From Eledone cirrhosa (lineage: Eukaryota): a stretch of 64,000 bases of DNA. The notes under the pieces were generated by a model. It was not told the origin of the DNA and did not search any database. It worked only from the letters and a program-made list of their open reading frames with translations. Shown here piece by piece: positions 1,396 to 63,914 of this stretch; within the stretch, counting starts at the first letter, position 1; the number at the start of each line of letters is the position of its first letter. The DNA lies in the NCBI GenBank assembly GCA_964016885.1, contig OZ024742.1, positions 101,990,001 to 102,054,000 on the forward strand. The letters are read 5' to 3'. The position numbers were made by a program, and so were the translations under genes.

Positions 1396-1580
1396 ATACA
1401 AAAGTGAGTTACAAACGAAACGAAATTTAATTTCGTTTCGTTATTTGTTTTTATCGTCTCCGCTGAACCGGTACGTACTCACGCTCTATGCAAATTAGTC
1501 TGCCCACTACTAATTTTCATAGAAAAAGCATATAACGATATGTGCTTTTACGATTCTCTAGAAAGGCCGGAAGATAGGTA

Positions 1581-1625
1581 AATATTGCTGATGAGATGTA
1601 ACAACATCGAAACTAGTCCAATATT
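1581..1625 (+). ncRNA. Type I hammerhead ribozyme (array A, copy 1)
   Basis: AATATTG-CTGATGA-GATGT aaca ACATC-GAAA-CTAG-TC-CAATATT: 7-bp stem I, intact core, 5-bp stem II, palindromic minimal stem III, GUC site. Confidence 0.93.
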
Positions 1626-2046
1626 CCTTGTCTGGCTTTCTGGAGAATAGAGGAAAGGTGTTTCCTCGAAAACCAGTATGACTCTAAAAACCGGTTTGTC
1701 TGTGTGTTTACATACAGAATAGCTGGACACTCACAGTAAAGTGTCCAGTGAAAAACTCGGTACATCTACATATGTACACGTGTGTGTATTCATATGCATA
1801 CTAGTATTTCAGTATACATATGTGGATGTACATTTTTAATTTAATTGTTTAAGCGTCAGTCATACAAAAGTGAGTTACAAACGAAACGAAATTTAATTTC
1901 GTTTCGTTATTTGTTTTTATCGTCTCCGCTGAACCGGTACGTACTCACGCTCTATGCAAATTAGTCTGCCCACTACTAATTTTCATAGAAAAAGCATATA
2001 ACGATATGTGCTTTTACGATTCTCTAGAAAGGCCGGAAGATAGGTA

Positions 2047-2091
2047 AATATTGCTGATGAGATGTAACAACATCGAAACTAGTCCAATATT
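2047..2091 (+). ncRNA. Type I hammerhead ribozyme (array A, copy 2)
   Basis: Same sequence as 1581-1625, offset +466. Confidence 0.93.
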
Positions 2092-2512
2092 CCTTGTCTG
2101 GCTTTCTGGAGAATAGAGGAAAGGTGTTTCCTCGAAAACCAGTATGACTCTAAAAACCGGTTTGTCTGTGTGTTTACATACAGAATAGCTGGACACTCAC
2201 AGTAAAGTGTCCAGTGAAAAACTCGGTACATCTACATATGTACACGTGTGTGTATTCATATGCATACTAGTATTTCAGTATACATATGTGGATGTACATT
2301 TTTAATTTAATTGTTTAAGCGTCAGTCATACAAAAGTGAGTTACAAACGAAACGAAATTTAATTTCGTTTCGTTATTTGTTTTTATCGTCTCCGCTGAAC
2401 CGGTACGTACTCACGCTCTATGCAAATTAGTCTGCCCACTACTAATTTTCATAGAAAAAGCATATAACGATATGTGCTTTTACGATTCTCTAGAAAGGCC
2501 GGAAGATAGGTA

Positions 2513-2557
2513 AATATTGCTGATGAGATGTAACAACATCGAAACTAGTCCAATATT
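2513..2557 (+). ncRNA. Type I hammerhead ribozyme (array A, copy 3)
   Basis: Same sequence as 1581-1625, offset +932. Confidence 0.93.
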
Positions 2558-2978
2558 CCTTGTCTGGCTTTCTGGAGAATAGAGGAAAGGTGTTTCCTCG
2601 AAAACCAGTATGACTCTAAAAACCGGTTTGTCTGTGTGTTTACATACAGAATAGCTGGACACTCACAGTAAAGTGTCCAGTGAAAAACTCGGTACATCTA
2701 CATATGTACACGTGTGTGTATTCATATGCATACTAGTATTTCAGTATACATATGTGGATGTACATTTTTAATTTAATTGTTTAAGCGTCAGTCATACAAA
2801 AGTGAGTTACAAACGAAACGAAATTTAATTTCGTTTCGTTATTTGTTTTTATCGTCTCCGCTGAACCGGTACGTACTCACGCTCTATGCAAATTAGTCTG
2901 CCCACTACTAATTTTCATAGAAAAAGCATATAACGATATGTGCTTTTACGATTCTCTAGAAAGGCCGGAAGATAGGTA

Positions 2979-3023
2979 AATATTGCTGATGAGATGTAAC
3001 AACATCGAAACTAGTCCAATATT
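2979..3023 (+). ncRNA. Type I hammerhead ribozyme (array A, copy 4)
   Basis: Same sequence as 1581-1625, offset +1398. Confidence 0.93.
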
Positions 3024-3319
3024 CCTTGTCTGGCTTTCTGGAGAATAGAGGAAAGGTGTTTCCTCGAAAACCAGTATGACTCTAAAAACCGGTTTGTCTG
3101 TGTGTTTACATACAGAATAGCTGGACACTCACAGTAAAGTGTCCAGTGAAAAACTCGGTACATCTACATATGTACACGTGTGTGTATTCATATGCATACT
3201 AGTATTTCAGTATACATATGTGGATGTACATTTTTAATTTAATTGTTTATATATATATATATATATATATATATATATATATATACACATATATATATAT
3301 ATACATAAATATATATATA

Positions 3320-61370: not shown

Positions 61371-61505
61371 TGAGTACATGTGTATCTATGTTGGGGTTGG
61401 GTCTGTATATATATATATATATATATATATATATATATATATATATATATATATATATATATACAATATATTAACAAATGGAAACTATATTTATAAAACC
61501 ATATT

Positions 61506-61571
61506 TATTTTATTATACATATTTCAAGGGCCACCAAGGCAGATTATGGTGCACTTTCATCAGATAAAATA
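61506..61571 (-). ncRNA. Type I hammerhead (family D) in a pLTR remnant at 61464-61648
   Basis: Reverse complement TATTTTAT-CTGATGA-AAGTGCACCA..TGGTGGCCCTT-GAAA-TATGTA-TA-ATAAAATA. Confidence 0.85.
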
Positions 61572-61696
61572 CAATAGAGATTAGTTTTATAAATAAATAT
61601 TGACATACCCTGAAAAAATGCAGCCTTAACGGTTGGAGCTTCCTGGATATATATATATATATATATATATATATATATATATATATATATATATAT

Positions 61697-62042
61697 GGAG
61701 GCACATGGCTTAGTGGTTAGAGCATTGGCCTTGCAATCGAAAGGTTGTGAGTTCAATTCTCAGACCGGGTGATGTGTTGTTTCCTTGAGCAAGACACTTT
61801 ATTTCACATTGCTCCAGTTTACTCAGCTGTAGAAATGAGATGATAGGTACTGCGGACCCTATCATTCCACTGCAAAGTGGTCGTGGAGGTGCCACGGCAA
61901 AAAAGCACCCAGCACTCACTGTAAATGAGGTTGGTGTTAGGAAGGGCATCCAGCTGTAGAAATCAAGCCAGAATCAGTTCCCGTCCCACCCTTGCAAGCA
62001 GGGAAAAGTAGACATAAAATGAAATGAAATGATGATGATGAT
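61697..62042 (+). mobile_element. tRNA-derived SINE S1
   Basis: Close copy of 14510-14902 with an internal deletion in the tail. Confidence 0.85.
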
Positions 62043-62056
62043 ATATATATATATAT

Positions 62057-63745
62057 ATTGGAATAAATGCTCTGAAATAGCGATATATATGTGAATATAG
62101 ACATAGAATATTCGAAAATATTCTGTATGTTTATAATAAACATTTTGAAGACCTAATCGCTATAGAATAGAATACGTCACGTATTACAATTAGATTCTCG
62201 ATAAAAGCAAGGGAAGTAATCTACGCGTTTCATTCTTATTAGAAATCTTCAGGACTACATATCCAGTGCTTTTATCGAGAATGACACAGCTAGAGACTTA
62301 TAGAATACTTAGCTGTGTACAGGAACTGGTTTGAAAGAGCGGTTGCCGGTCCGGCAGAAATTAGAAATTGGAATAAATGCTCTGAAATAGCGATATATAT
62401 GTGAATATAGACATAGAATATTCGAAAATATTCTGTATGTTTATAATAAACATTTTGAAGACCTAATCGCTATAGAATAGAATACGTCACGTATTACAAT
62501 TAGATTCTCGATAAAAGCAAGGGAAGTAATCTACGCGTTTCATTCTTATTAGAAATCTTCAGGACTACATATCCAGTGCTTTTATCGAGAATGACACAGC
62601 TAGAGACTTATAGAATACTTAGCTGTGTACAGGAACTGGTTTGAAAGAGCGGTTGCCGGTCCGGCAGAAATTAGAAATTGGAATAAATGCTCTGAAATAG
62701 CGATATATATGTGAATATAGACATAGAATATTCGAAAATATTCTGTATGTTTATAATAAACATTTTGAAGACCTAATCGCTATAGAATAGAATACGTCAC
62801 GTATTACAATTAGATTCTCGATAAAAGCAAGGGAAGTAATCTACGCGTTTCATTCTTATTAGAAATCTTCAGGACTACATATCCAGTGCTTTTATCGAGA
62901 ATGACACAGCTAGAGACTTATAGAATACTTAGCTGTGTACAGGAACTGGTTTGAAAGAGCGGTTGCCGGTCCGGCAGAAATTAGAAATTGGAATAAATGC
63001 TCTGAAATAGCGATATATATGTGAATATAGACATAGAATATTCGAAAATATTCTGTATGTTTATAATAAACATTTTGAAGACCTAATCGCTATAGAATAG
63101 AATACGTCACGTATTACAATTAGATTCTCGATAAAAGCAAGGGAAGTAATCTACGCGTTTCATTCTTATTAGAAATCTTCAGGACTACATATCCAGTGCT
63201 TTTATCGAGAATGACACAGCTAGAGACTTATAGAATACTTAGCTGTGTACAGGAACTGGTTTGAAAGAGCGGTTGCCGGTCCGGCAGAAATTAGAAATTG
63301 GAATAAATGCTCTGAAATAGCGATATATATGTGAATATAGACATAGAATATTCGAAAATATTCTGTATGTTTATAATAAACATTTTGAAGACCTAATCGC
63401 TATAGAATAGAATACGTCACGTATTACAATTAGATTCTCGATAAAAGCAAGGGAAGTAATCTACGCGTTTCATTCTTATTAGAAATCTTCAGGACTACAT
63501 ATCCAGTGCTTTTATCGAGAATGACACAGCTAGAGACTTATAGAATACTTAGCTGTGTACAGGAACTGGTTTGAAAGAGCGGTTGCCGGTCCGGCAGAAA
63601 TTAGAAATTGGAATAAATGCTCTGAAATAGCGATATATATGTGAATATAGACATAGAATATTCGAAAATATTCTGTATGTTTATAATAAACATTTTGAAG
63701 ACCTAATCGCTATAGAATAGAATACGTCACGTATTACAATTAGAT
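62057..63745 (-). mobile_element. Retrozyme-like tandem array C: ~5.45 x 310 bp, one hammerhead per unit
   Basis: TTGGAATAAATGC at 62058, 62368, 62678, 62988, 63298 and 63608; copies look identical; (TA)n flanks. Confidence 0.9.
62216..62258 (-). ncRNA. Type I hammerhead (array C copy 1; others at 62526-62568, 62836-62878, 63146-63188, 63456-63498)
   Basis: Reverse complement GTAGTC-CTGAAGA-TTTCT aata AGAAT-GAAA-CGCG-TA-GATTAC. Confidence 0.9.
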
Positions 63746-63826
63746 ATATATATATATTATGAAGAGAGAAGAAACATTTAGATATAATTAGTAATAAAAT
63801 GTATCATACCTAAACTGTTCCTAAAT

Positions 63827-63914
63827 TCCTCGACTACGTAGTTTCGTGGCATAAACAAAAACAATATATCAAAGATATAGAGTCCTTGCGAGGTCTGCCG
63901 ACTTATCAAGAGGA
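63827..63914 (-). ncRNA. Degenerate hammerhead with a long stem II
   Basis: Reverse complement TCCTC-TTGATAA-GTCGGCA...TGCCAC-GAAA-CTACGTAG-TC-GAGGA (two core substitutions). Confidence 0.55.

Follow-up and report, generated by a model that had tools for sequence, protein, structure and literature searches.

The window analysed here comprises 64 kb of the 3.0-Gb assembly of Eledone cirrhosa (GCA_964016885.1, contig OZ024742.1, positions 101,990,001–102,054,000); it has a GC content of 37% and contains many TA and CA tracts. The assembly encodes molluscan haemocyanin domains, seven to a gene on C1, a number that marks the octopod/nautilus type. Among the tracts lie several families of short repeated units, each unit bearing one type I hammerhead ribozyme. 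They are retrozymes without long terminal repeats (non-LTR retrozymes), a known kind of element, being tandem, short, non-coding, self-paired and dispersed in many copies. The units are likely to be copied by the enzymes of Penelope-like elements (PLEs) from small RNA circles, and their insertions follow the same end rule as those of coding PLEs: the four younger families have two fixed 3' ends, designated sites A and B, and an insertion with two arms mostly ends at A on one side and at B on the other. The element class is already described; new here is the mechanistic evidence obtained from ends and variants. For animal retrozymes two steps have been proposed but not shown, namely PLE enzymes as the movers and circles as the template. 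The thousands of young insertions in this genome speak to both steps and, with an intact candidate enzyme, the cycle becomes testable.

Retrozyme units and the ends of their insertions

An earlier note on this DNA, made from its letters alone, had announced five non-coding families with units of 466, ~430, 310, 681 and ~344 nt. All five (F466, F430, F310, F681 and F344) were found, as tandem or terminally redundant copies:

1396–3249, plus strand: F466 array of 4.0 identical 466-nt units; hammerhead cores at 1588, 2054, 2520 and 2986; predicted cuts after 1618, 2084, 2550 and 3016; the 3' end lies at site A, unit position 233 counted from the cut, and (TA)n follows
7722–8696, both strands: F430 two-armed insertion; minus arm ending at B (hammerhead 8033), plus arm ending at A (hammerhead 8449)
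26370–27030, both strands: F344, an old family; 1.5 units in tandem plus a piece in inverse orientation; its hammerheads, at 26540 and 26882 (minus strand), are decayed
44962–45728, minus strand: F681 insertion of 1.13 units; core at 45448 with a branched stem II insertion; 3' end at site B
52451–53042, minus strand: F430 single-armed insertion of 1.4 units; hammerhead 52770; 3' end at B
62057–63745, minus strand: F310 array of 5.4 identical 310-nt units, bounded on each side by (TA)n; cores at 62252, 62562, 62872, 63182 and 63492; 3' end at site B (unit position 165)

The ends were compared with those of insertions fetched elsewhere in the same genome (locus names L014, L166 and so on). The F466 and F681 loci of highest identity were taken, and further loci were chosen by position from the exact hammerhead matches (F466, F310 and F430) and from the exact B-end matches (F466 only). 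Counted from the cut, the 3' ends fell at 228–233 (A) and 302 (B) in F466, ~135–139 (A) and 165 (B) in F310, ~213–219 and 273–275 in F430, and 304 and 417 in F681. The coding PLE designated H1, described below, ends at +21 and +89 and obeys the same two-end rule. The two sites are 30–113 nt apart. Of 134 F466 3' ends, 126 lay at A or B, and in 120 of these 126 a TA run followed, which bears out the earlier claim of insertion into TA tracts.

In most insertions a minus array and a plus array are set head to head. Where both outer ends of a two-armed insertion were in view, 67 of 76 had one end at A and the other at B, none had A+A or B+B, and nine had one aberrant end; seven more, cut by the edge of the fetched stretch, were left out of this count. 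By family, A+B was found in 36 of 39 F466 insertions and in a further 11 of 11 picked by their B end (which test only B+B against A+B), in 10 of 10 F310 insertions (one duplicate pair included), in 6 of 9 of F430 and in 4 of 7 of F681. All six two-armed elements of the window likewise possess one short and one long 3' end. Such a strict one-A-one-B rule constrains the poorly understood mechanism of PLE insertion.

Round the unit the 107 recorded 5' ends show an even distribution (Kolmogorov-Smirnov p 0.13), with 4 of 107 lying within 10 nt of the cut against 4.6 expected. Unit ends do not coincide with the cleavage site, as the note had observed, the 3' ends being fixed at A or B and the 5' ends random. 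Since the latter are indifferent to the cut, the reverse transcriptase (RT) did not stop at the ribozyme site, and its template was a closed circle or an uncut multimer.

In PLEs the so-called tail has been traced to two internal RT start sites, and the protein of the Poseidon PLE is a predicted dimer which extends both target strands (Frangieh et al. 2024, PMC11167929). The insertions described here resemble these and other PLEs (PMC11167929; Craig et al. 2021, PMC8557442) in having two internal start sites, an inverted 5'-truncated arm and AT-rich targets, and in that the tail is often found at one end only. They differ in tail length (30–113 nt, against 30–40 in those two studies), in that A at one end is paired with B at the other in vivo, while in vitro the strands behaved alike (PMC11167929), and in that the signature is carried by non-coding hammerhead units. 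The A/B tail together with the inverted truncated arm is direct evidence for PLE machinery moving the units. With both internal start sites and the AT-rich target in evidence, the retrozymes have very probably been mobilised by PLE enzymes.

The longest ATG frame on the circularised units of the five families specifies 30–97 amino acids, and the circular folds have z scores of −4.1 to −9.9 against shuffled sequences; the units are thus both non-coding and structured, as claimed. In 23 F466 units from different subfamilies 98.6% of the alignment cells keep the predicted pairs. Six pairs, one of them in hammerhead stem II, are changed on both sides against 2.5 ± 0.9 after shuffling; this alignment was also the source of the structure, and the first 40 nt of one row are mis-framed. 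Within the F466 hammerhead core 1 of 166 site observations differs, against 454 of 6717 elsewhere, in loci picked by their B end; an earlier version of this test, with loci chosen by exact hammerhead or top identity, was dropped.

Exact hammerhead matches number 1,520 (F466), 1,361 (F310) and 5,281 (F430) genome-wide, and exact F466 B-end/TA junctions 1,680. The F310 figure comes from the exact pattern, a similarity search with the 310-nt unit being blind even to the copy in the window. First-look candidates number 4,586 for F681, the best 92–97% identical, and 1,656 for F344. F466, F310, F430 and F681 are young to middle-aged families with thousands of genomic copies. F344 is old, since its best other copies are only 72–80% identical; the description of the set as recently active fails for this family. 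The F430 unit measures ~420–436 nt (window copies 7722–8696 and 52451–53042) and is homologous to F466, with 64% identity over 215 nt in a sensitive comparison of the monomers with H1 and other elements of the window; among the matches listed, the rest were mostly of low complexity, apart from the F310–H1 hammerhead match given below. Tandem F430-related units at L049, L053, L113 and L116 are 24–29% divergent from the window type and point to further retrozyme families. The joining of distinct monomer subfamilies at the cut site, considered for L161, is not supported, the variant monomer occurring in no other F430-type locus.

Sequencing runs X8, X4, X5 and X6 were also compared with the F466 unit; their contigs are of unrecorded or uncertain kind and uninformative on RNA ends or circularity. 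X4 and X5, labelled as other organisms, each hold one closed contig representing a whole F466 unit (495 and 497 letters, depth ~10) whose differences mostly match subfamilies of this genome. A second run of the X4 sample has next to no F466 words. A related species and cross-contamination are both possible sources, the kind of run being unrecorded.

Coral, mussel and axolotl are known to express tandem repeats with type I hammerheads as circles, and the axolotl hammerheads with a palindromic stem III cut efficiently as dimers (Cervera and de la Pena 2020, PMC7229834). The Eledone families are like these metazoan retrozymes in that their tandem units are non-coding, AT-rich and self-paired, and each bears a single type I hammerhead. 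As in the axolotl motifs, stem III of these hammerheads is palindromic and weak, and stem II has a U-U mismatch at its base. In the genomes of that study, as here, PLEs occur alongside retrozymes, and rolling-circle reverse transcription was proposed. Its retrozymes are 150–450 bp long, whereas units here reach 466 and 681 nt, and its circles were demonstrated, whereas those of the present units are predicted. In the available text of PMC7229834 there was no trace of (TA)n targeting, of inverted insertions with two arms or of fixed A/B ends. Non-autonomous head-to-tail derivatives of PLEs have also been noted (PMC8557442).

Li, Clavereau and Pollet (2026, bioRxiv 10.64898/2026.07.22.740005) likewise argue for an origin from PLEs and for PLE-driven mobility, with units of 51–972 bp; their evidence is co-occurrence and similarity to the pseudo-LTRs (pLTRs) of PLEs in 35 species (31 vertebrates, three insects and one coral). 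They ascribe tandems to local amplification, whereas here the imprint of PLEs is directly visible at the ends and young arrays look as if born long. In mostly open literature, taken without supplements, no report was found of cephalopod retrozymes, of a strict A+B rule or of editing fixed in retrozyme arrays. A 2026 paper on the repeats of Octopus vulgaris makes no mention of ribozyme or hammerhead.

Uniform arrays and A>G changes

The longest head-to-tail runs contain 27 units. L014 has 16.5 units with no difference between them and L054 28.5 units with five singletons. The youngest two-armed arrays (L014, L015, L057 and L086) are long in both arms and hold 0–1 differences, and single-unit changes do not grow with array length (rho −0.30). 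Array-wide variants termed private, because no other sampled locus has them, were present in 7 of 44 F466 arrays (six across both arms) and in 4 of 10 F310 arrays (three across both arms); they are found in every unit of both arms in L057 (17 of 17) and L072 (19 of 19). Arm lengths in F466 are correlated (rho 0.44, p 0.007, perhaps inflated by locus picking). This correlation and the patterns shared at the same position suggest that both arms are often copies of one molecule.

Other arrays are less simple. L020 alternates in the manner of a dimer circle, and the two arms of L021 differ in periodicity. The inner units of L166 are identical to one another but unlike its outer units and its other arm, which indicates growth after insertion. 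Some arrays, then, come from multimeric templates or have grown after insertion. L166 (C1:49583400–49590400) and L167 are old F430 arrays turned into higher-order satellites; in the former a change in hammerhead stem II occurs in alternate inner units. The F430 array listed from C1:51772498 spans at least 19 kb.

The array-wide variants have a distinctive spectrum. Of the 37 private array-wide variants 14 are A>G, compared with 32 among 348 single-unit changes (p 1.4e-5). A>G makes up 2 of 53 single-unit changes in the youngest arrays, and 19 of 53 changes on the recent branches of a tree of 64 arrays. All 18 usable A>G sites lie at predicted A-U pairs of the monomer fold (65% expected, p 4e-4; one site was dropped, its reference base being G), and the changes cluster in single hairpins (336–345). 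A>G exceeds paired C>T (p 7e-5), and 46 of the 53 recent-branch changes are at paired sites. Plain tolerance of G-U pairs is disfavoured, since it would also favour C>T and unpaired sites, and neither was seen.

The excess is what inosine read on every lap of a circle would give. RNA editing in coleoid cephalopods falls heavily on repeats (PMC9068888). Three observations tell against editing. T>C is also raised on the recent branches (12 of 53, p 0.006), and in at least three cases it compensates for an A>G within one array, so that selection on structure (A-U > G-U > G-C) may contribute. The test leans on F466, F430 having given one usable variant (A>T) and F681 3 of 11. The single-unit baseline may contain assembly errors. 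On balance we lean slightly towards editing as the source. If it is, these arrays offer a route for RNA editing to become fixed in DNA.

Template and mechanism of insertion

As judged from the genomic copies, a small RNA circle was probably the main template. The rolling-circle reverse transcription proposed in the earlier note is accordingly favoured by indirect evidence (the ends, the uniform arrays and the A>G changes) as the general route, with some arrays requiring multimers or later growth. Several points weigh against it. Many of the loci were selected by high identity or by an exact hammerhead match, and the conservation of the hammerhead core is not significant when counted as distinct shared variants (0 of 65, with an estimated ~1.7 expected). 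Unit-specific variants occur in both arms of eight arrays. In both arms of L062 the two units nearest the 3' end are plain and all the others variant; this pattern is not periodic, so that a linear multimer, or copying of the first cDNA, fits it better than a monomer circle. Higher-order duplications are present in L166, L167, L080, L088 and L027. In vitro the Poseidon PLE uses uncleaved RNA, its hammerhead is dispensable and its start sites are alike on both strands (PMC11167929), and self-cleavage was observed in only one of nine Xenopus dimers (bioRxiv 10.64898/2026.07.22.740005).

Much of this would suit non-autonomous PLEs copied from long uncleaved tandem transcripts, with the hammerheads as passengers and the arrays grown by unequal crossing-over, a proposal that resembles the model of bioRxiv 10.64898/2026.07.22.740005. 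In vitro, PLE RT starts internally and accepts unprocessed RNA (PMC11167929), a linear multimer would likewise give 5' ends blind to the cut, same-position variants are found in both arms of L020, L062, L066 and L087, and growth after insertion is seen in L166, L167 and L080. The youngest two-armed arrays are, however, already long, and their single-unit changes do not rise with length, whereas linear copying can only shorten an array. Edits on a linear multimer should moreover appear as single-unit A>G changes, of which the young arrays have only the two mentioned, and hammerhead stem II covaries. We regard a linear template as improbable for the bulk of the insertions.

With a circle as the probable template, the next question is how the two arms arise. 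They could come from a single priming if the first cDNA folded back and was copied towards the target. This would explain variants common to the same position in both arms, the variant of L080 that is confined to the two junction units and two inner units (446 and 438), and the overlaps of 0–13 nt common at F466 arm junctions. A copy of the first arm should, however, share its end site, whereas the arms always end differently; either arm can be the longer (A in 19 and B in 17 of 36 F466 A+B insertions); the arms of L021 differ in periodicity; and PLE nicks and extends both strands in vitro (PMC11167929). Fold-back copying is doubtful on these grounds, and two primings on one RNA are somewhat favoured.

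Multiplication from RNA to RNA as viroid-like replicons, with the genomic arrays as by-products, is very unlikely. Both strands fold well, and T>C, equivalent to edits on the opposite strand, is raised; but hairpin-rich sequence is expected to fold on both strands, at least three of the T>C changes are compensatory, the hammerhead is on one strand only, and thousands of genomic copies are enough as a source. The label "viroid-like" overstates the case for these units. That the units are merely pLTRs or truncated 3' ends of coding PLEs is hardly credible: the F310 hammerhead core and stem II are 89% identical to those of H1 over 28 nt, and other PLE-type hammerheads of the window are indeed parts of coding elements, but the units repeat head to tail up to 27 times with no open reading frame (ORF), and PLE protein matches, sought with four query proteins in flanks of ~1.5–3 kb, were present in 15 of 82 F466, 5 of 20 F681, 0 of 12 F310 and 1 of 20 F430 stretches, at least 227 nt away and from different families. 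With such matches few and none adjoining, the units are not pLTRs tied to a coding PLE; had they been, the note would have regarded its proposal as refuted.

The following cycle may be envisaged for copying from circles by PLE enzymes. A tandem or terminally redundant copy would be transcribed, its hammerheads would excise monomers, and a host ligase would close them, as suggested by PMC7229834; with a palindromic stem III, two units should be needed for folding. A PLE protein dimer, by analogy with PMC11167929, would bind the circle far from the ribozyme and nick both strands of a (TA)n tract, one cDNA starting from site A and the other from site B; the two ends and the rule are observed. Each RT would then lap the presumed circle, through the sealed cut site, a variable number of times, a step suggested by the random 5' ends and uniform arrays. 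The two cDNAs would be joined head to head with little or no overlap, giving the inverted array pair; where one cDNA fails, the lone arm would join the TA tract directly. On each lap the RT would read A-to-I edits of the folded RNA as G, which would make them array-wide, in keeping with the observed A>G changes. A minority of insertions arose from multimeric templates, and old arrays also grow by duplication at the DNA level, both as observed above. The full combination of a PLE dimer, two RTs working from fixed sites on one ribozyme-made circle, and ADAR inosines in stems written on each lap is put forward tentatively, at rather less than even confidence. If true, the retrozyme arrays of this genome would record directly both rolling-circle reverse transcription and the turning of RNA edits into heritable DNA change.

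Hammerhead inventory, coding elements and other features

A relaxed descriptor detected 22 type I motifs in the window, whereas 40 shuffles gave 0.1 on average, and one at most, at that score; a strict type I descriptor detected nine. The F681 hammerhead was missed, the loop of its 51-nt stem II region being too long, and was recognised by eye, which brings the complete motifs to 23. Thirteen belong to the small families (five in F310, four in F466, three in F430 and one in F681), and ten lie outside them, three in two coding PLEs and seven at the ends of other TA-bounded elements. About six further motifs are decayed or partial (8770, 26540, 26882, 35538, 47074 or 25410, and 63913), stem I of the one at 8770 being an artefact of inversion; the earlier total of about 29 is reached only if these are counted. 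In the descriptor output the ribozyme is on one strand only of each unit, and stem III is palindromic in F466, F430 and F310. The F681 motif (45395–45460, minus strand) carries a branched insert of three small hairpins in its stem II loop, and long stem II regions are also present in the elements at 34260, 35098 and 63913.

An Rfam scan, as recommended in the note, gave no match in the window at the gathering score. Below it, among the 150 of 336 matches listed, were HH9 on all four 466-nt copies (38.9 bits, E 2.5e-6) and Hammerhead_1 on 37986–38030 and 40579–40623; at such scores the TA tracts yield hundreds of spurious microRNA matches.

The remaining hammerhead-bearing and PLE-related features are as follows:

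1–1383, minus strand: H1 (Hydra-clade PLE), inverted arm; microsatellite-like 3' untranslated region (UTR); ends at site A just left of the window
3320–7681, plus strand: H1, 5'-truncated; hammerhead core at 7553; ends at site B, then (TA)n
3320–5019, plus strand: H1 frame with RT and C-terminal GIY-YIG; one frameshift near 4000; long TA/TG-rich 3' UTR downstream
8705–8890, both strands: very small two-armed fragment from the 3' end of an H1 relative, with a partial hammerhead at 8770
15690–15909, plus strand: element end with PLE-type hammerhead core at 15714; ends in (TA)n
34093–35176, both strands: non-coding two-armed element; hammerheads at 34260 (minus) and 35098 (plus); one long and one short 3' end
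37940–40770, minus arm: H2 (second Hydra-clade PLE); endonuclease half of the frame at 40480–39293; hammerhead at 38024; short-site end
37940–40770, plus arm: H2; hammerhead at 40585; long-site end
40840–41258, both strands: two-armed fragment with minimal PLE-type hammerheads at 41039 (minus) and 41150 (plus); relatives at 53849 (plus) and 61563 (minus)
42087–43062, plus strand: Neptune-type PLE remnant, assigned by its motifs; it retains the RT thumb, a CX4CX2C linker and a GIY-YIG domain with CCHH
63835–63914, minus strand: decayed hammerhead-like motif with a long stem II

H1 and H2 belong, by their sequence motifs, to the Hydra clade. Full copies of H1 carry DKT, RWR, CxCX5C, CxxC and CxH motifs, with GIY-YIG placed C-terminal to the RT; in other genomic copies of H2 the RT lies upstream of the endonuclease. 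H1 thus shares with the Hydra clade (PMC8557442) the C-terminal GIY-YIG, the DKT, RW, CxCX5C, CxxC and CxH motifs, the hammerhead and the (TA)n targets. It differs in size, very abundant units of ~5–6 kb (owing to the microsatellite-like 3' UTR) comparing with less than 3 kb in that clade; the family lists in the supplements of PMC8557442 may include these elements. Naiad has an N-terminal endonuclease and no canonical hammerhead (PMC8557442). Naiad identity was rejected for H1 and H2, in which the RT precedes the endonuclease and hammerheads are present. Of the Naiad- and Neptune-type remnants reported in the note, the former are therefore Hydra-clade elements by domain order and motifs, and the latter is retained as Neptune-type by its motifs.

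H1 has 28,338 first-look candidates genome-wide. A 758-codon open frame is present in 12 of 18 fetched stretches, which were chosen for long open frames, and a search with the protein gave relatives 39–53% identical, none bearing a family label. The intact H1 is a candidate helper for the retrozymes. The hammerhead stretch is common to H1 and F310 only, and the tail of H1 is unlike those of F466, F430 and F681. The 3' UTR of H1 contains 2.5–3.5 kb of TA/TG microsatellite-like sequence which is moved with each copy (5242–7039 and 1–1383 in the window; L110–L127). With ~28,000 candidates, H1 may be a major source of the microsatellite content of this genome.

Several other elements were noticed in the window. 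Direct repeats of 585 bp (54081–54659 and 56277–56861, 96% identical) flank 1.6 kb with no long ORF, the whole lying in (TA)n. No hammerhead fits this element, which could be a non-autonomous LTR element or else a terminally redundant unit lacking a ribozyme. The sequence at 58325–58624 (plus strand), with no Pfam match, resembles what we take to be the C-terminal restriction-like endonuclease of a non-LTR element. Two copies resembling short interspersed elements (14503–14795 and 61690–61984, 97% identical) have a tRNA-like head, in which ARAGORN identified no tRNA gene; the second directly follows a TA tract. Finally, a near-perfect 97-nt palindromic element is present between TA tracts at 46854–46950, and the same type of sequence follows TA tracts in L040, L046 and L048.

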